Shown here in pieces: positions 7,290 through 61,082 of a stretch of DNA of 64,000 nucleotides. Location: contig OX597838.1 of the NCBI GenBank assembly GCA_951406725.2, forward strand, positions 29,946,001 through 30,010,000, given 5' to 3'. Both the position numbers and the translations under genes were made by a program. The stretch comes from Octopus vulgaris (Eukaryota). The notes under the pieces are model-generated. The model had not been told where the DNA came from, did no database searches, and worked only from the letters and a program-made list of their open reading frames with translations. Each line of letters starts with the position of its first letter. The stretch's first letter is position 1.

Positions 7290-8813
7290 TCTTTCCCTTT
7301 CTAAAAAAACCCAAATTAAATAGTGACCTTTTATCCTTTCAGAGGTGGTGGTGATAGTGGGGGTTAATTAAAAAAAAAATAAATCAGATACCAGTCATAT
7401 ACTGGGGTCCTGTAAATTGTCCCAGACTTGAATAAGACTTTACAAGGTGATGAAGACTTTGGACTACCAGCAGCATTGCCATCAGCACATCTTCAGAAGC
7501 AAAAAACAAAATGCCAATAAGCTGTACAAATTGCGTGTACTGCAGTACTGCATATTTAACAACATTGCATCTCTATCAAACCCACCGAAACATGGATGAT
7601 ATACTACAGAAAACCACCACTGTTTTATACCATCATACCATTCCATACCATTTCCATTCTTTGCTGATTGGTTCATGGTAGTTTCTACTTCTTCCTGAAA
7701 ATCTCCAGACATAAGCATGCACTTCCTTGAAGCATGTCAATGCATGTGCATGCCGTAGCACTTGAGAATGCAGTAAAATGCACACATACATCAGCTTAAA
7801 ACCAAGATGTGCATAGAACAAAAAATACCACACACACACATTTGGATATACATTGATATCTTGCTATGTACCATTCCTAACTCTGTTACAAATCGCTGCA
7901 TCATTCCATCCATCCTGCAACTTGCTGCATTTCTCAATGCACCACTCTATACTGAAGATATCACCACACTGCAATATTGAGAAAAAACACGTTAAACTCA
8001 CAAGAGTGCTATTTTCCAAAGGGAAATGCTGAGCTGGACACAAGGTACAACATATAGCTGTACACAAGCACGTGCAAACCTAAGCATCATTCAGTCTCGC
8101 AAAAATGCATTCGCACACTACAAATCTAAACATTTCAAACCCCCTCTGATACACACTACTCATGTTTTTTTTCTCCCTTGGCCTCATATATATTCATTCA
8201 CTACATATAGACCTTATTCCAACTCTGGTTTGGTTTTAAATGTGGTGTCAGTCAGTGTAAAAGAACAACACAAATGGGGTTTAAAATTTACTACAGCTGT
8301 TTCGGTAGCATTTTATAGATGCATTTATAAATTAGCATAAATCCACCACCCTCAGGCAAAAACCTTAAACAGGTGTACAATGGCAAGGTAAAATCTAGAT
8401 GACCTATTTACCACGTGATTCACTACTTATATATATCTTGTTTCAGTCATCAGACTGTGGCCATGCTGGGGCACAACTACCCTGTTATACACTCTCTCTC
8501 TCTTTCTCCATACATTTACACAATGGTATGCATATTCTTCAGTGTCACACTCTAACCCTGCATTATGCTACACTTCACTCTGTTGCACAACATTGACATA
8601 TTTACTCAACACTGCTGCATGCTGTTGCACTCCATTATTCCACACTAGGATTGCATTATAACTGTAAACAGTAACAACAACAACAATAATAATAAATTAT
8701 AAAAACTGTCTTAATTCAATAATCTGGGTGTCTTTTTTTTTCTTTCTCTCTCTCAGTATTTTTTTCTCTAAAATTCTCTCAGTAGCTTATGCCTACCAAT
8801 AAGTATTCCAGTT

Positions 8814-20279: not shown

Positions 20280-20575
20280 TTGTTTTAATGTTTAGGATTA
20301 AAAAGACACAAGATTAAAACCTGATGTTTTAAATGTCGATATAGATTTAAATTGTAAGAACGTGGTGGATTTGTTTTTAAATGTCAACAGAAAGAGATAA
20401 AAAGCGTAAAACCTGTTGTTTTAAATGGCATGAGATAAAAAAGGTAAGAACCTGATGTTTTAAATGACAACAAAGATAAAAAAAAAACAATGGAAAGAAC
20501 CCGTTGGATTTGTTTTTAAATGTGAAAGAAAACGATAATAAAACGAAAGTATTTAGTATTTTAAATCTCAACAAA
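20280..20575. repeat. Degenerate 40-55 bp tandem repeat anchored on TTTTAAATG
   Basis: About seven units ending in aacctg[a/t]tg or tggatttgtt. Confidence 0.6.
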
Positions 20576-20990
20576 GGCGCAGGAGTGGCTGTGTGGTAAG
20601 TAGCTTGCTAACCAGCCACATGGTTCCGGGTTCAGTCCCACTGCGTGACATCTTGGGCAAGTGTCTTCTGCTATAGCCCCGAGCCGACCAATGCCTTGCG
20701 AGTGGATTTGGTAGACGGAAACTGAAAGAAGCCTGTCGTATATATGTATGTATATATATATATATATATGTGTGTGTGTTTGTGTGTCTGTGTTTGTCCC
20801 CCCACCATCGCTTGACAACCGATGCTGGTGTGTTTACGTCCCCGTCACTTAGCGGTTCGGCAAAAGAGACCGATAGAATAAGCACTGGGCTTACAAAGAA
20901 TAGTCCCGGGGTCGATTTGCTCGACTAAAGGCGGTGCTCCAGCATGGCCGCAGTCAAAATGACTGAAACAAGTAAAAGATAAAAGAGAAA
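20576..20990 (+). mobile_element. Family-B SINE, full length
   Basis: tRNA-like head, conserved core, internal (TA)n(TG)n and 3' domain. Further copies at about 16660(-), 24850(-), 25590, 27828 (two heads), 31845, 34043, 36695(-), 41345(-), 44785, 45225 and 50448. Confidence 0.88.
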
Positions 20991-30289: not shown

Positions 30290-31320
30290 GTGATATAGTG
30301 CTCAGGTGCAGTACAACTTATCAGATGGTGCATGTATAGTGCATGATGAATTATGTAATAATAATACCATAAAGGGAACAGTTTATGAGTCATGATAATA
30401 CATGTGTGCATGCGTATGGAGGGGGAAGGGTGTATAGGTGTAGTGTGGGCAATGATATAATGCATTATGAGGAAGCATGGAGATAGCATTTAAAGGATTC
30501 AATGTCTCGGCAACTAACAAATGATGCGGGTAGCTTGTTCTGTGCTTCAGCAAAACTCTGAGTGTGAAAGCATGTTTCTGAAACTCAAGGGAGCTGTGCT
30601 GTTTTTTCTGATTTAGTGGGAATGCCCACATGTGTTAGACACATGGAGCTCAAAAAGGTGCTCAAGGTGGTTATTAGCAACATGGTCAATAATTTTGTGG
30701 GTGTTTATCAAGTCAGTTGCCAGACATCGGAACTTCAGTGTATCTATAACTAGGTAAGCAAGGCGTCCAAAGTATGGTAGATGCCTGTTGGAGGGTATTC
30801 GCTTGGTTGCACGTCTCTAAGCAGTTTCCAGGAGGTCAATATCCTGAGCAAGATTTGCCTCACCAGTTCCAGACTGGTGATGCAAATTCCAAGTGTGGCC
30901 GCGCTATAGCCATATATAGCCTTAAATAGATACCTGGAGAGCAACTGACAAAGGTCTTACTGAGTGATGCCAAGACACCCTCAGCCTTCTTGACCATTTT
31001 AGAGATGTGCTTTGTCCAGTGCAAATTGTTGCTGACAGTAATGCCCAGGTTACGTCCACAAGAAGTTTCCTTGATATTAGTGTTGTGGAGAGAGTGTGTG
31101 GAAGCTGGGATTTTCCTCCCAAAATGTATGGTGGTACACTTGTCCACAGCCAGCTTGAGATGCCAGTCTGTGATCCATTGTTGCATTGTGTCCGGGTCCG
31201 ATTGCAGGAAAGATCTATAGCGTTCAGGATCTGTCCTTTTCATCTCAAGGTTCAGCTTGATGTCATCTGCATATTTCAGCACTGTGGCATTCCTTAAGTT
31301 GGCATCTATGTCATTAATGA
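30290..31320 (-). mobile_element. CR1-like LINE 3' fragment (RT C-terminal half)
   Basis: KYADDIKL...LQSD...W.LKLAVDKC...NLGITV...RPHLEFASPVWN. Confidence 0.88.
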
Positions 31321-31643
31321 CTGTTTTTCCTTCTTTCCGGTTCTCAGTACGCGGTTTCGTCTCAGTGTCCAGCTCTCCGATGAAGATTCTGGCATCGACT
31401 GGTAAGCAGTGACGGTAAGATGATAAGAATTGGGTGGGTTAAAATTAATTTCTGAAGGATCCTGACCTAATGTTTGGATACTCAAAGCGTGGGAGGCAAC
31501 ACGAAAATACTAAATTTGAAAGTTGTGTTCCCCTACAATAAGTACCTTTAATACTAAGCAATCTCGGAGAGAAAGAGAGAAGAGAGAGAAGGAAGAGAGA
31601 GAGAGAGAGAGAAAGGGAAGAGAGAGAGAAGGAGGGAGAGACT

Positions 31644-33700: not shown

Positions 33701-34469
33701 CCCTAACGTCTTCCCTTTCTGTTTTTTTTTTTGTTTGCTATTATAATGGCCTGCGTTCTTTAGAACTGGCTGGACTCATCCCTCCACTCCTCGGGTACCC
33801 ACTTATATCTCCACATTTCTTCACCCTTTTTGCGCCAAACCCTCTCCGGCCCCATATTCGTCAGTAACCCAGTCCTTTTTCCCCAGACCAATCACCCCTC
33901 TGGAGTCCTCACACACCTCGTCATATCTTCTTTGCAGTTATTGACCCCCAACATTTTAAACAGCAACAAACTCAACGATCTCAGGGACCCTACAAAGGCT
34001 ATGGGCTCTACCCCATCATCTAGACACAACTAATAAAAATATGTGGCTGTGTGGTAAGTAGCTTGCTAACCAACCACATGGTTCCGGGTTCAGTCCCACT
34101 GCGTGGCATCTTGGGCAAGTCTCTTCTGCTATAGCCCCGGCCCGACCAATGCCTTGTGAGTGGATTTGGTAGACGGAAACTGAAAGAAGCCTGTCGTATA
34201 TATGTGTATATATATATATGTATGTGTATGTGTGTCTGTGTCTGTCTCCCTAGCATTGCTTGACAACCGATGCTGGTGTGTTTGCGTCCCCGTCACTTAG
34301 CGGTTCGGCAAAAAGTGACCGATAGAATAAGTACTGGGCTTACAAAAGAATAAGTCCCGGGGTCGATTTGCTCGACTGAAGGCGGTGCTCCAGCATGGCC
34401 GCAGTCAAATGACTGAAACAAGTAAAAGAGAGTAAAGATAAATAAGAAATTTCTATAAAACAAAATCCT

Positions 34470-47264: not shown

Positions 47265-48210
47265 TTGCCACAAGGGAGGCCATTTTTTTGGGGGGGGGGA
47301 GAGAATGAGTCAATTACATCGACCTCCGTGTTCAACTGGAACTTATTTAATCGACCCCGAAAAGATGAAAGGCAAAGTCGACCTCGGCGGAATTTGAACT
47401 CAGAACGTAGCGGCAGACGAAATACCTATTTCATTACTACCCACAAGGGGCTAAACACAGAGAGGACAAACAAGGATAGATAAACGGATTAAGTCGATTA
47501 CATCAACCCCAGTGCGTAACTGGTACTTAATTTATCGACCCCGAAAGGATGAAAGGCAAAGTCGACCTCGGCGGAATTTGAACTCAGAACGTAGCGGCAG
47601 ACGAAATACCTATTTCATTACTACCCACAAGGGGCTAAACACAGAGAGGACAAACAAGGATAGATAAACGGATTAAGTCGATTACATCAACCCCAGTGCG
47701 TAACTGGTACTTAATTTATCGACCCCGAAAGGATGAAAGGCAAAGTCGACCTCGGCGGAATTTGAATTCAGAACGTAGCGGCAGACGAAATACCTATTTC
47801 ATTACTACCCACAAATGGCTAAACACAGAGAGGACAAGCAAGGATAGATAAACGGATTAAGTCGATTACATCGACCCCAGTGCGTAACTGGTACTTAATT
47901 TATCGACCCCGAAAGGATGAAAGGCAAAGTCGACCTCGGCGGAATTTGAACTCAGAACGTAGCGGCAGACGAAATACCTATTTCTTTACTACCCACAAGG
48001 GGCTAAACACAGAGAGGACAAACAAGGACAGACAAACGGATTAAGTTGATTACATCGACCCCAGTGCGTAACTGGTACTTATTTAATCGACCCTAAAAGG
48101 ATGAAAGGCAAAGTTGACCTCGGCGGAATTTGAACTTAGAAGGTAGCGGCAGACGAAATACCGCTAAGCATTTCGCCCGGAGTGCTAACGTCTCTTCCAG
48201 CTCACCGCCT
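47265..48210 (-). repeat. Head-to-tail family-A SINE array, 184-bp period
   Basis: ctacccacaa recurs at 47437, 47621, 47805 and 47989. A dimer with the same junction lies at 48540-48930. Confidence 0.93.
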
Positions 48211-52977: not shown

Positions 52978-54276
52978 GTGAAATACTTTTCCCACGAAAG
53001 TTCCGGACCCCACTAATGAACTCCTTTGCATACAGCCAATCAGAGCTCACCTTGACCTTGTTGTCAAGTTAACAAACACACTCTACCAAGGAAATTCAAG
53101 ACGAAGAACGGTGTTGTTTTAATGCTTAGCGGTATTTATTTCGTCTGCCCCAACGTTCTGCGTTCAAATCCGCCGAGGTCGACTTTGTCTTTCATCCTTT
53201 AGGGGTCGATTAAATAAGTACCAGTTACGCACTGGGGTCGATATAATCGACTTAATCCGTTTGTTTGTCTTTGTTTTTCCTCTCTGCGTTTGACCCCTTG
53301 TGGGTAGTAAAGAAATAGGTATTTCGTCCGCCGCTACGTTCTGAGTTCAAATTCCGCCGAGGTCGACTTTGTCTTTCATCCTTTAGGGGTCGATTAAATA
53401 AGTACCAGTTACGCACTGGGGTCGATATAATCGACTTAACCCGTTTGTTTGTCTTTGTTTGTCCTCTCTGCGTTTGACCCCTTGTAGGTAGTAAAGAAAT
53501 AGGTATTTCGTCCGCCGCTACGTTCTGAGTTCAAATTCCGCCGAGTTATGTCTGGTTTTAGAAGGAGACAAGTAATTAGATAGATTTGCATCTATACCTA
53601 TTATCGGATTTTGTTAGGGCCCCTTATGGTAAAAATGTGGATGGGAAAAATGTGGGTAGAGGATGATCTGCTAGTAACCCTCTCCCCTTACTGTTTTACA
53701 AAGTAAACAACAACACAAATAACTACGCTGAGGCAGCCATGGTTGGAACAAGAACAAGATCAAGGAGCATTATTAAAAGAGAAGAGAAGCATGGTCATTC
53801 CTTAACCAAGTGACCTTATCTTATCGCCAATCACTCATTTTGTGCTCATTAGTTAGTTTGATGGTTGAACTCTGATTGGCTGTATGCAAATGAGTTCATA
53901 ACTGGGGTCCGGAACTCGCGTGGGAAAAAAATCATCTATACCTATTATCGGATTTTGTTAGGGCCCCTTATGGTAAAGATGTGGATGGGAAAAATGTGGG
54001 TAGAGGGTGATGTGCTAGCAACCCTCTCCCCTTACTGTTTTACAAAGTAAACAACAACACAACTATGCAGAGGCAGTCATGGTTGGAACAAGAACAAGAT
54101 CAAGGAGCATTATTAAAAGAGAAGAGAAGCATAGTCATTCCTTAACCAAGTGACCTTATCTTATCGCCCATCACTCATTTTGTGCTCATTAGTTAGTTTG
54201 ATGGTTGAACTCTCATTGGCTGTATGCAAATGAGTTCATAACTGGGGTCCGGAACTCTCGTGGGAAAAAAATTCGC
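52978..54276. mobile_element. Non-autonomous DNA transposon (MULE-like) with TIRs of about 75 bp and a 9-bp TSD, inside a family-C SINE
   Basis: TSD gaccgggat at 52969-52977 and 54277-54285. Nested SINE-A array at 53120-53545. Right end tandemly duplicated (53590-53933 / 53934-54276). Confidence 0.78.
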
Positions 54277-54711: not shown

Positions 54712-56031
54712 AGATGCCGTTGAGCTGGCAGAAACGTTAGCACGCCGGGCGAAATGCGTAGCCGTATTTCGTCTGTCGTTACGTTCTGAGTTCAAATTCC
54801 GCCGAGGTCGACTTTGCCTTTCGTCCTTTCGGGGTCGATAAATTAAGTACCAGTTACGCACTGGGGTCGATGTAACCGACTTAATCCGTTTGTCTGTCCT
54901 TGTTTGTCCTCTCTGTGTTTAGCTCCTTGTGGGTAGTAAAGAAATAAGAAACGTTAGCACGCCGGGCGAAATGCGTAGCGGTATTTCGTCTGCCGTTACG
55001 TTCTGAGTTCAAATTCCGCCGAGGTCGACTTTGTCTTTCATCCTTTAGGGGTCGATAAATTAAGTACCAGTTACGCACTGGTGTCGATGTAACCGACTTA
55101 ATCCGTTCGTCTGTCCTTGTTTGTCCTCTCTGTGTTTAGCTCCTTGTGGGTAGTAAAGAAATAAGAAACGTTAGCACGCCGGGCGAAATGCGTAGCCGTA
55201 TTTCGTCTGCCGTTACGTTCTGAGTTCAAATTCCGCCGAGGTCGACTTTGTCTTTCATCCTTTAGGGGTCGATAAATTAAGTACCAGTTACGCACTGGTG
55301 TCGATGTAACCGACTTAATCCGTTCGTCTGTCCTTGTTTGTCCTCTCTGTGTTTAGCTCCTTGTGGGTAGTAAAGAAATAAGAAACGTTAGCACGCCGGG
55401 CGAAATGCGTAGCAGTATTTCGTCTGCCTCTACGTTCTGAGTTCAAATTCCACCGAAGTCGACTTCACCTTTCATCCTTTCTGGGTCGATAAATTAAGTA
55501 CCAGTTACGCACTGGGGTCGATGTAATCGACTTAATACCTATGTCTGTCCTTGTTTGTCCTCTCTGTGTTTAGCCCCTTGTAGGTAGTAAAGAAATAAGA
55601 AACGTTAGCACATCGGGCGAAATGCGTAGCCGTATTCCCCCTGCCATTACGTTCTGAGTTCAAATTCCGCCGAGGTCGACTTTGTCTTTCATCCTTTCGG
55701 GGTAGATAAATTAAGTACCGGTTACGCACTGGGGTCGATGTAATCGACTTAATCCGTTTGTCTGTCCTTGTTGGCCCCCTCTGTGTTTAGCCCCTTGTGG
55801 GTAGTAAAGAAATAAGAAACGTTAGCACGCCGGGCGAAATGCGTAGCCGTATTTCGTCTGCCGTTACGTTCTGAGTTCAAATTCCGCCGAGGTCGACTTT
55901 GCCTTTCATCCTTTCGGGGTCGATAAATTAAGTACCAGTTACGCACTGGGGTCGATGTAATCGACTTAATACCTATGTCTGTCCTTGTTTGTCCCCTCTG
56001 TGTTTAGCCCCTTGTGGGTAGTAAAGAAATA
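54712..56031 (+). repeat. Six-unit head-to-tail family-A SINE array, 217-bp period, inside one 15-bp TSD
   Basis: gaaacgttagc at 54731, 54948, 55165, 55382, 55599 and 55816. TSD ggtagaggcgacagt at 54697-54711 and 56032-56046. Confidence 0.93.
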
Positions 56032-56900: not shown

Positions 56901-57096
56901 CGCACACGCACACACGCACACAACATGCACGAATACACGAAATACAAAATAAAGCAATATATGGGTGTGTGTGTGTGTGTGTGTATATGTGGTGCATGTG
57001 TGTGCTTTATTGTGTTCATGAGAAGGTATTTGTATGTATGCATGTGTGTGTGTACGAATGCATATATGTATATATGCACACATTTTTGTGTGCATA

Positions 57097-57260
57097 GGCG
57101 CAGAAGTGGCTGTGTGGTAAGTAGCTGGCTAACCAACCACATGGTTCCGGGTTCAGTCCCACTGCGTGGCATCTTGGGCAAGTGTCTTCTGCTATAGCCC
57201 CGGGCCGACCAATGCCTTGTGAATGGATTTGGTAGACGGAAACTGAAAGAAGCCTGTCGT
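57097..57260 (+). mobile_element. Family-B SINE 5' half (host of the palindrome)
   Basis: Head and core end in (TA)n; the 3' half resumes at about 60715-60936. Confidence 0.88.
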
Positions 57261-57261
57261 A

Positions 57262-57328
<67 letters not shown>

Positions 57329-57339
57329 TATATAGAAGG

Positions 57340-57390
57340 AGCTTCTACAGGACTAGTACTGTTTCATTCAAGAGAAATCTTCAGGAAGCT
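57340..57390 (-). ncRNA. Type I hammerhead ribozyme motif (mirror copy)
   Basis: Exact reverse complement of 60527-60577. Confidence 0.7.
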
Positions 57391-57735
57391 ATTTAACAAG
57401 AATTGTATTAGCATTTATACATTTAGGCAGGTTTAAAGGAGTGGTGGTGGGGGACTTTTTGGGGGTAGGCATAGCGCAAAATATCATACTTGGGGGAGTG
57501 GTCAAGGAGTCAGTGGTAAGTTAGATGAAAGAATAGATAAATAAAAAAAAATAAAATAATAAAAAATAAAAAAATAAAAAATATATAAAAAATATATATA
57601 TATAAAAATATATATATAAAAAAATATATATATAAAAAAAGGGGGATAGAGTTATAGGTAAATAAGGAGATTCTCACTTATACCTATACACACATGTATA
57701 CGTATCTACACACACATACATATACACATATATAT

Positions 57736-57774
<39 letters not shown>

Positions 57775-58238
57775 CACATACATATATACACACATACATA
57801 CATATCTACATACACACATACATACACCCGCCCACATATACAAATTTATACACATGCACATGCCTATACCTGTCTACACATACACACACGTATATATGCA
57901 TACACTCACTCCCATGCATGCACGCATACACACATGTATATATATATATATATATACCCACGACCACACATACATATATACACAGAAAAATATATATTCA
58001 TACGCACATACACTCATGCACACACAACACACCTAGTTCCCTATATACACATATTTACCCCTATATATACCTACACCCACATACACCTATGTACATATAT
58101 ATATATATATATATATACATATACACGCATACATATATATACATGTGTGCACATACATACATACACACATATACATACACATACACATACACATGTGTAC
58201 CTATACATACCTACACATACACACATACATACATACAA

Positions 58239-58269
<31 letters not shown>

Positions 58270-58966
58270 CTATCCAATACAGGCCCATTCCCTAATTTTA
58301 ATTTTATTATCTTCATTTATTACTTTTGTTATCTTTGATCGCTAGGGCTAAGAATCCTGGCTATGGCTGCATGTCCATTTGTCTGTCTACTAGAAGGCAA
58401 GTACTCATTCCCGCACGCACACTCATTAGCACGTACATTCACCCATTCATACACTCATACACATACACGTACGCACGCGTTATATTCATACATACAAACA
58501 TCTACATACGTTCACGTATATACACATACGTACTCGTACCTACAGATTCGTGTCTACACTTTAGGAGGCTAGTCTATACATATACACCAAAAAACATACA
58601 TATATATATATATACACACATATACATATATACTCCTATGTATATGTATATATATATATATATGTATATGTATATATATATATGAGTGCGTGTGTGTATG
58701 TATGCATATATGTATGTATGCATGTATATGTGTATGTATATATATATGTGTGTAAGTGTGTGCATATATGTATATGTAAGTATGTGTGCGCGTATGAGTA
58801 TGTATGTATGCTTGCACACGTGTATATATATGTGTGTGTGTGTATATATATGGATGCGCGTGCGTGTGTGCACGTGTATGGGTACGCATGTATATGTGTA
58901 TGTGCGTGTATGTGTATACGTGTATGTATGTATGTGTGTGCGTAGATTTGTATATGTATGTGTGAG

Positions 58967-59002
<36 letters not shown>

Positions 59003-59176
59003 GATGGGTGTGTGTATGCGTATAAATGCATGTAAGTATGGATGTATGGATGTATGTATGTATGTATACGTATGTATGTGTGTATGTGTGTATGTATATA
59101 TATGTGTGTATATATGTTTGTGTATGTATATATATGTGTATGTATGTGTGTGTATATGTATGTGTGTATGTGTATG

Positions 59177-59240
<64 letters not shown>

Positions 59241-59643
59241 GGTATGTATCTGTATGTAGGAGTATATATGTGTGTGTGTGTGTATGTATATGTGTGTATA
59301 TATATATATATATGTATGTTTTTTGGTGTATATGTATAGACTAGCCTCCTAAAGTGTAGACACGAATCTGTAGGTACGAGTACGTATGTGTATATACGTG
59401 AACGTATGTAGATGTTTGTATGTATGAATATAACGCGTGCGTACGTGTATGTGTATGAGTGTATGAATGGGTGAATGTACGTGCTAATGAGTGTGCGTGC
59501 GGGAATGAGTACTTGCCTTCTAGTAGACAGACAAATGGACATGCAGCCATAGCCAGGATTCTTAGCCCTAGCGATCAAAGATAACAAAAGTAATAAATGA
59601 AGATAATAAAATTAAAATTAGGGAATGGGCCTGTATTGGATAG

Positions 59644-59676
<33 letters not shown>

Positions 59677-60140
59677 TTGTATGTATGTATGTGTGTATGT
59701 GTAGGTATGTATAGGTACACATGTGTATGTGTATGTGTATGTATATGTGTGTATGTATGTATGTGCACACATGTATATATATGTATGCGTGTATATGTAT
59801 ATATATATATATATATATATGTACATAGGTGTATGTGGGTGTAGGTATATATAGGGGTAAATATGTGTATATAGGGAACTAGGTGTGTTGTGTGTGCATG
59901 AGTGTATGTGCGTATGAATATATATTTTTCTGTGTATATATGTATGTGTGGTCGTGGGTATATATATATATATATATACATGTGTGTATGCGTGCATGCA
60001 TGGGAGTGAGTGTATGCATATATACGTGTGTGTATGTGTAGACAGGTATAGGCATGTGCATGTGTATAAATTTGTATATGTGGGCGGGTGTATGTATGTG
60101 TGTATGTAGATATGTATGTATGTGTGTATATATGTATGTG

Positions 60141-60181
<41 letters not shown>

Positions 60182-60526
60182 ATATATATGTGTATATGTA
60201 TGTGTGTGTAGATACGTATACATGTGTGTATAGGTATAAGTGAGAATCTCCTTATTTACCTATAACTCTATCCCCCCTTTTTTTATATATATATTTTTTT
60301 ATATATATATTTTTATATATATATATTTTTTATATATTTTTTATTTTTTTATTTTTTTATTATTTTATTTTTTTATTTATCTATTCTTTCATCTAACTTA
60401 CCACTGACTCCTTGACCACTCCTCCAAGTATGATATTTTGCGCTATGCCTACCCCCAAAAAGTCCCCCACCACCACTCCTTTAAACCTGCCTAAATGTAT
60501 AAATGCTAATACAATTCTTGTTAAAT

Positions 60527-60577
60527 AGCTTCCTGAAGATTTCTCTTGAATGAAACAGTACTAGTCCTGTAGAAGCT
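60527..60577 (+). ncRNA. Type I hammerhead ribozyme motif
   Basis: AGCUUC-CUGAAGA-U UUC ucuu GAA U-GAAA-CAG uacuaguc CUG-UA^-GAAGCU: 6-bp helix I, intact core, GUA cleavage triplet at 60569-60571. The U-U at the base of helix II is non-canonical. Confidence 0.72.
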
Positions 60578-60660
60578 CCTTCTATATAATAAATTAATTT
60601 TACTCTGCTATGTATTGAGTACCTTACTTACTGTGGTTAACCCCGAATCAACCCGGGACC

Positions 60661-60713
<53 letters not shown>

Positions 60714-60714
60714 G

Positions 60715-60936
60715 TATGTGTGTGTGTTTGTGTGTCTGTGTTTGTCCCCCCTAGCATTGCTTGACAGCCGATGCTTGTGTGTTTACGTCCCCGTCACTTA
60801 GCGGTTCGGCAAAAGAGACCGATAGAATAAGTACTGGGCTTACAAAGAATAAGTCCCGGGGTCGATTTGCTCGACTAAAGGCGGTGCTCCAGCATGGCCG
60901 CAGTCAAATGACTGAAACAAGTAAAAGAGTAAAAGA
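60715..60936 (+). mobile_element. Family-B SINE 3' half
   Basis: Continues 57097-57260 colinearly with the intact copy at 20576. Confidence 0.88.
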
Positions 60937-61082
60937 GTGTGTATGTTATGTATGCATGTGTGGTGTATACTTGTAGGCATGTTTCTATACATGTATGTTA
61001 TGTATGTATGTACGTATGTGTGTTTTCTTTGTCTGTATATATGCCTGTTACATATGTATGCTTGTGTCTATGTATGTATATC

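Follow-up and report, generated by a model that had tools for sequence, protein, structure and literature searches.

The stretch of DNA analysed here (the window, 64,000 nucleotides from Octopus vulgaris) is microsatellite-rich eukaryotic DNA with many SINE-like repeats. Positions 57323-60663 are taken up by a 3.34-kb insertion that consists of two head-to-head arms with a hammerhead motif near each outer end. The insertion and its target comprise the following features:

57093-57259, + strand: 5' half of a split host SINE-like repeat
57260-57322, no strand: (TA)n target on the left side, within which a target-site duplication cannot be told
57323-58638, − strand: left arm, an inverted, 5'-truncated copy ending at a short 3' end equivalent to 60594
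57340-57390, − strand: second hammerhead, identical to the first and part of the inverted arm, predicted to be cut between 57346 and 57345
58639-59256, + strand: unpaired spacer, 618 bases of simple repeats, G-rich on the + strand like the right arm
59257-60594, + strand: part of the right arm common to the left arm, non-coding and microsatellite-rich
60527-60577, + strand: type I hammerhead with U10.1-U11.1, cut predicted after A60571
60568-60586, + strand: predicted hairpin of 8 bp that overlaps both the cut site and the helix I 3' strand, competing with the active fold
60595-60663, + strand: 69-nt tail, on the right side only
60664-60701, no strand: (AT)n target on the right side
60702-60937, + strand: 3' half of the same host SINE-like repeat

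As the flanks are two halves of one repeat in register and the same repeat is uninterrupted elsewhere in the window (about 20572-20987 and 34043-34430), where it provides empty sites, the sequence between the flanks is a 3.34-kb insertion within a TA repeat. Four other copies of the host repeat were aligned and are intact, with a short (TA)n at the insertion point. The left arm differs from 59257-60594 by one substitution and seven small indels over ~1.3 kb. A record of RNA editing in the arms was rejected because the right arm shows C to T, and not A to G, at this sole substitution. We infer that the spacer between the arms belongs to the right copy, as its longer 5' part. Just before the tail ends, a stem-loop whose loop is A/C-rich is predicted at about 60642-60657.

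The arms are non-coding and contain no open reading frame with a telomerase-like reverse transcriptase and a GIY-YIG endonuclease, as an autonomous element would. Of 309 candidate frames, 89 picked among the 150 longest were compared with Pfam, as was the tail frame. Among these 90 frames, five gave weak matches, none at the curated cut-off and none inside the insertion. Two frames near the ribozyme were considered and rejected: the ATG at 60550-60552, which would place an open reading frame start inside the ribozyme as in the anole element PAc, reaches a stop after four codons, and the frame past the cut site stays open through 30 codons, as far as the tail end, with no ATG and no Pfam match. 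Elsewhere in the window, a decayed reverse transcriptase fragment lies at 30863-31438 on the minus strand (RVT_1, E 5e-6, below cut-off); by its motifs it looks like a LINE type, not a Penelope type. Young SINE-like tandem arrays occur at 47308-48162, 53137-53545 and 54730-56031, with periods of 184, 184 and 217 and repeats 94-96% alike; no hammerhead fitting the strict descriptor given below was found in these three arrays.

A type I hammerhead with a U-U mismatch

A structure built by position resolves the motif at 60527-60577 into these parts, all on the + strand:

60527-60532/60572-60577: helix I, 6 Watson-Crick pairs
60533-60539: core CUGAAGA
U60540 opposite U60551: U-U mismatch at the base of helix II
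60541-60543/60548-60550: helix II, 3 bp, with loop UCUU
60552-60555: GAAA
60556-60558/60567-60569: helix III, 3 bp plus A15.1-U16.1, with an 8-nt loop containing ACUAGU

The hammerhead consensus (C3UGANGA9, G12AAA15.1 and U16.1-H17) is present in full, the triplet before the predicted cut is GUA, and three helices of 6 bp, 3 bp and 3+1 bp surround the core, with the ends of the motif joining in helix I as in type I. The one departure lies at position 10.1-11.1, which is usually paired (mostly G-C) and is U-U here. These results bear out the original prediction of an intact CUGAAGA/GAAA/GUA core with a 6-bp helix I and of a U-U beneath a 3-bp helix II. The mirror cleavage site that it placed on the minus strand proved to be that of the second copy at 57390-57340, in which 30 of 30 bases were matched in the search and across which the arm alignment contains no difference. 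A minus-strand hammerhead within 60527-60577 itself was rejected, since no core is present there. An alternative register for helix II with an extra base was rejected by inspection, as the U-U persists and pairs are lost.

With a strict descriptor (helix I at least 6 bp, helices II and III at least 3 bp each; thresholds chosen after the motif was seen), two matches were obtained in the window, which as parts of one element count as one independent match, vs none in 300 dinucleotide shuffles of the whole window. The folding energy of the 51-mer is unremarkable vs shuffles (z -0.17). Rfam gave no match at the gathering score, and none of 25 weak matches was a hammerhead. Word pairs of the form CUGANGA...GAAA are found eight times in the window where 2.2 are expected; six further pairs (at 7952, 8503, 21010, 46612, 47024 and 52775) all fail the helix filters of the descriptor. 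Judged by its sequence, the motif at 60527-60577 is confirmed as a real and complete type I hammerhead.

An abundant family with little variation in the ribozyme

The 3' stretch of the insertion (60372-60664) is present in 20 of 24 listed public sequencing runs (nine studies, three organism labels), some of them of only 2 million letters; among the listed runs with the stretch, none is on record as RNA. Aligned to four runs at 80% likeness, it met 12469, 2262, 1323 and 2484 contigs, where contig depth is not to be equated with copy number. The aligned runs consist of contigs, in which RNA ends cannot appear. In all four runs some contigs (19, 12, 14 and 12) depart after 60594 into (AT)n, while other contigs of the same runs continue from 60594 into the tail. 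These exits fall at the very point at which the left arm stops, and the short end is a trait of the family. The interior (59325-59642) was met by 2490, 560 and 351 contigs in three large runs and by 16 in the fourth, X4, a run guessed to be RNA whose 16 interior contigs say nothing on expression. Per base, the density of interior contigs is 0.18-0.24 of that at the 3' end, as 5' truncation would give. At 59363 and 59464, the letters common to both arms differ from 97-100% of the depth in the three large runs. Since both arms carry the same rare letters, they come from one source. Metagenome scans with the exact and with a relaxed family pattern gave no match in either case, and no diverged relative was found in them.

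At 60527, where helix I begins on its 5' side, breaks recur in other copies: 19 contigs in run X1, 7 in X2 and 2 in X9. The loose letters at these breaks are the reverse complement of the 5' half of the hammerhead in X1 and are mixed or different in X2 and X9, which suggests for X1 head-to-head junctions centred on the AGCT palindrome. At 60436-60448, some contigs share the last 220 bases and differ upstream; these are possibly sister subfamilies, and could possibly lead to a coding partner.

Within the motif, only two of 51 sites vary at 2% or more of the depth. At 60537, the core position N7, A changes to U in 11-19% of the depth, and at 60560, in loop III, T makes up 72-92%, a change that leaves CUAG in place. 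The palindrome ACUAGU claimed for helix III therefore exists in this copy and is the minority allele of the family; CUAG centred on the helix III axis is common to both alleles. No variant at 2% or more was seen at U10.1 or U11.1, so that the U-U is a family trait and not damage in this copy. Both variable sites are free positions (p 0.06), and the 38 constrained sites contain no variant vs 10 of 242 (p 0.23) and 24 of 318 (p 0.06) flanking sites. The pattern would suit a working ribozyme, although as a sign of selection it is statistically weak. The run contigs show no compensatory change in the helices, where no site varies at 2% or more.

Folding and prospects of cleavage

Nearest-neighbour predictions, which leave out tertiary contacts and Mg2+, give the active fold about 2.5% of the monomer ensemble of the 51-mer and 0.05% or less with the full tail. 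With the 5' end set at 60440, the predicted share of the active fold drops from 0.017 to 0.0007 once 60586 is included and the 8-bp hairpin of 60568-60586 can close over the cut site. Helix III pairs have probabilities of about 0.7 in the isolated 51-mer. The usual contact between loop I and loop II of hammerheads uses an A in loop II, and loop II of the motif consists of pyrimidines only, with no A. Based on the small active-fold share and this missing A, the motif may be nearly inactive.

The helix III segment is predicted at -1.4 kcal/mol as a monomer and at -15.2 and -12.8 kcal/mol as in-register homodimers of the two alleles; for the whole motif, the values are -7.3 kcal/mol for the active monomer vs -27.0 kcal/mol for the swapped dimer. 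A sense-antisense duplex of the two copies would reach -92.9 kcal/mol. As the two copies lie on opposite strands, no transcript of the insertion contains two sense copies and no dimer can form in cis; read-through at this locus would rather give a 1.3-kb hairpin in which the ribozyme is fully paired. A dimer would thus be possible only in trans or in tandem source elements, none of which was observed. The suggestion of dimer-dependent cleavage accordingly keeps the favourable swapped fold and a published U-U precedent (described below) and loses the cis dimer. By analogy with that precedent, slow or dimer-aided cleavage is plausible, and an ordinary, slow-cutting variant is likely what the motif represents.

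A more elaborate scheme can be drawn from these predictions, one we hold only tentatively and think unlikely to be right as a whole. The ribozyme would be gated: the U-U would weaken helix II, and the 8-bp hairpin would hide the cut site within about nine further bases, so that the RNA stays whole for reverse transcription. Cleavage would occur only upon a CUAG-mediated helix III swap between two sense copies or upon opening of the hairpin by the element's protein, and each two-armed insertion would represent the two ends of a single DNA break, both of them primed on the same RNA from starts 69 nt apart.

Origin of the insertion and relation to known hammerheads

The explanation that we consider likely is a slow type I hammerhead with a U-U, cutting better as a dimer or with protein help, that is present twice in mirror image in a 3.34-kb non-coding fold-back insertion, itself likely written by a Penelope-like reverse transcriptase with an endonuclease. 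Published insertions of endonuclease-bearing Penelope-like elements have at their 5' end a copy that is inverted and 5'-truncated, bear a tail on only one side and lie in microsatellite targets (PMC8557442; PMC3846280). The locus presents the same arrangement, with a hammerhead 23 nt before the short end, an inverted 5'-truncated copy placed head to head, a one-sided tail with both ends recurring in the family, and an AT-rich microsatellite target. In the anole element PAc, AT-rich DNA is cut on both strands by the endonuclease, the tail is set by reverse transcription from two internal sites, uncut RNA serves as the main template, and hammerhead cleavage takes place only when protein is present (PMC11167929). 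The stem-loop before the tail end at 60642-60657 resembles the start site reported for PAc (PMC11167929).

Following this literature, the endonuclease of the element would cut AT-rich DNA and reverse transcription would begin inside the RNA at two sites, giving the short end at 60594 and the long end at 60663. Both arms would be copied from one source, each stopping at its own 5' point, and would then be joined head to head. The template would be uncut RNA, because both ends lie beyond an intact cut site, by 23 and 92 nt, and a slow ribozyme would fit such a template. In folding predictions, the active fold would be a small share of the monomer ensemble, masked further once 60586 has been made, and a helix III swap between two sense RNAs would be favourable. 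The ribozyme at this locus is likely a passenger without a role of its own. The locus would be classed as a Penelope-mobilised, truncated or non-autonomous insertion, where the name Penelope rests on layout and motif without protein homology and a clade (Penelope/Poseidon, Neptune, Nematis, Hydra) cannot be assigned. The Penelope link made in the original prediction is thus upheld by the insertion layout and not by the motif alone, while its assignment to the minimal type is at odds with a helix III of 3 bp plus A-U and with the short helix II.

The alternative that survives best, which we nevertheless regard as improbable, is that the hammerhead in the same Penelope-type insertion is a dead relic: the source would have lost an ancestral G-C to U-U by decay and would then have been amplified without any need for cleavage. 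The selection signal is not significant, and the low predicted share of the active fold and the competing hairpin would suit such a relic. PAc with a mutated ribozyme can still insert in vitro, and RNA ends at its cut site were not seen (PMC11167929). Furthermore, none of the 56 representative Penelope hammerheads in Figure S3 of PMC4209133 starts helix II with U-U, a count read by eye from extracted text and from a source whose descriptor required a pair. However, the other core letters, the three helices and GUA are intact family-wide and both variable sites are free, the change from G-C to U-U takes two steps, and natural U-U variants exist, of which the axolotl one cleaves (PMC3088659; PMC7229834).

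A non-LTR retrozyme family, made of short tandem units and circular RNA, of which the copy here would be an odd and dispersed member, is very unlikely. The closest U-U precedent is a retrozyme hammerhead (PMC7229834), and animal retrozymes have been proposed to derive from Penelope ends (bioRxiv 10.64898/2026.07.22.740005). Yet retrozymes consist of head-to-tail units of 150-450 bp with one hammerhead each, and no tandem unit of that size exists in the insertion, where the longest period among 25 tandem repeats listed is 58. Each arm also reaches 1.3-2.0 kb upstream of its single hammerhead, the interior 1 kb upstream is abundant as well, and the only joint listed among run contigs is a 32-base skip.

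We give slightly less credence still to a fold-back that arose as an assembly or library artefact, or when one ordinary copy later underwent a local inverted duplication. The near identity of the arms would be expected from this, and no read or contig spanning the locus was found among the run contigs. The arms nonetheless differ by the substitution and indels given above, the end of the left arm coincides exactly with the short end seen in other samples, and the flanks are halves of one host repeat in register, with nothing outside the insertion duplicated. A foldback- or MITE-type DNA transposon with long terminal inverted repeats and a hammerhead arising by chance would account for the long inverted arms and the TA target, but is hardly credible given the unequal ends with a 69-nt tail on one side, the fall of contig cover towards the interior and the position of the hammerhead near an end, which is a Penelope trait.

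Neither the U-U mismatch nor the layout of the insertion is new. No paper on this hammerhead family was found in the literature on octopus hammerheads and U10.1 variants, where the small Penelope hammerheads of Lunse et al. 2016 may include such variants, and the O. vulgaris repeat paper contains no occurrence of the word ribozyme. The locus adds an abundant invertebrate Penelope-type family with U-U at 10.1-11.1. As Rfam and descriptors that demand a paired helix base miss the U-U form, ribozyme counts in such genomes are probably low. With empty sites in the window, two defined 3' ends and two loop III alleles, the locus is a clean specimen, suited to testing the cause of slow cleavage in Penelope hammerheads and the way in which two-armed insertions arise. 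Overall, its importance is modest.

Among known hammerheads with this mismatch, a natural U10.1-U11.1 has been described as the best tolerated mispair at that position (Perreault et al. 2011, PMC3088659). Those hammerheads share the mismatch with the motif here, although the core-variant legend of that paper names phage and bacterial examples and not Penelope elements. In a scan of phage loci with a loose U-U pattern, the 120 loci listed of about 670 contain 132 matches, two of which pass the helix filters. These two form full U-U hammerheads and are unrelated to the insertion family:

L008, 301-338, − strand: phage U-U hammerhead, helix II 4-5 bp
L078, 301-344, − strand: phage U-U hammerhead, helix II 4-5 bp

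With minimal Penelope hammerheads, the motif shares type I topology, AU-rich flanks, a palindromic helix III centre (CUAG, centred in both alleles) and a free N7 (PMC4209133). In the minimal consensus, A9 is followed by an extra base, helix II is long and opens with G10.1-C11.1, and helix III has 0-2 bp, whereas the motif here has none of these (PMC4209133). With 3 bp plus A-U, its helix III is not too weak for a monomer, and a monomer fold is possible. A U-U reading of the Hydra row in the 2014 supplement was rejected, as the GAAA column was lost in the extracted text.

Published Penelope-like insertions resemble the locus in the hammerhead near one end, the inverted 5'-truncated copy, the tail at one end and the AT-rich or (TA)n target. 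Their tails measure 30-40 nt, whereas the tail here measures 69 nt and no open reading frame for a reverse transcriptase or GIY-YIG endonuclease is left.

The axolotl hammerhead HHR_Amex2, with U-U at the base of helix II and about 60,000 copies (Cervera and de la Pena 2020, PMC7229834), is like the octopus motif an animal type I hammerhead with this mismatch in very many copies. It differs in a helix III of 2 bp with a tetraloop and in a contact between loops 1 and 2, in place of the 3-bp helix III, 8-nt loop and pyrimidine-only loop II found here. Its setting differs as well, as HHR_Amex2 lies in 350-bp tandem retrozymes that yield circles, while the octopus insertion carries one hammerhead per arm of a kb-sized fold-back. 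As a monomer, HHR_Amex2 reached 22% cleavage within 1 h, and its dimer cleaved much better (PMC7229834).
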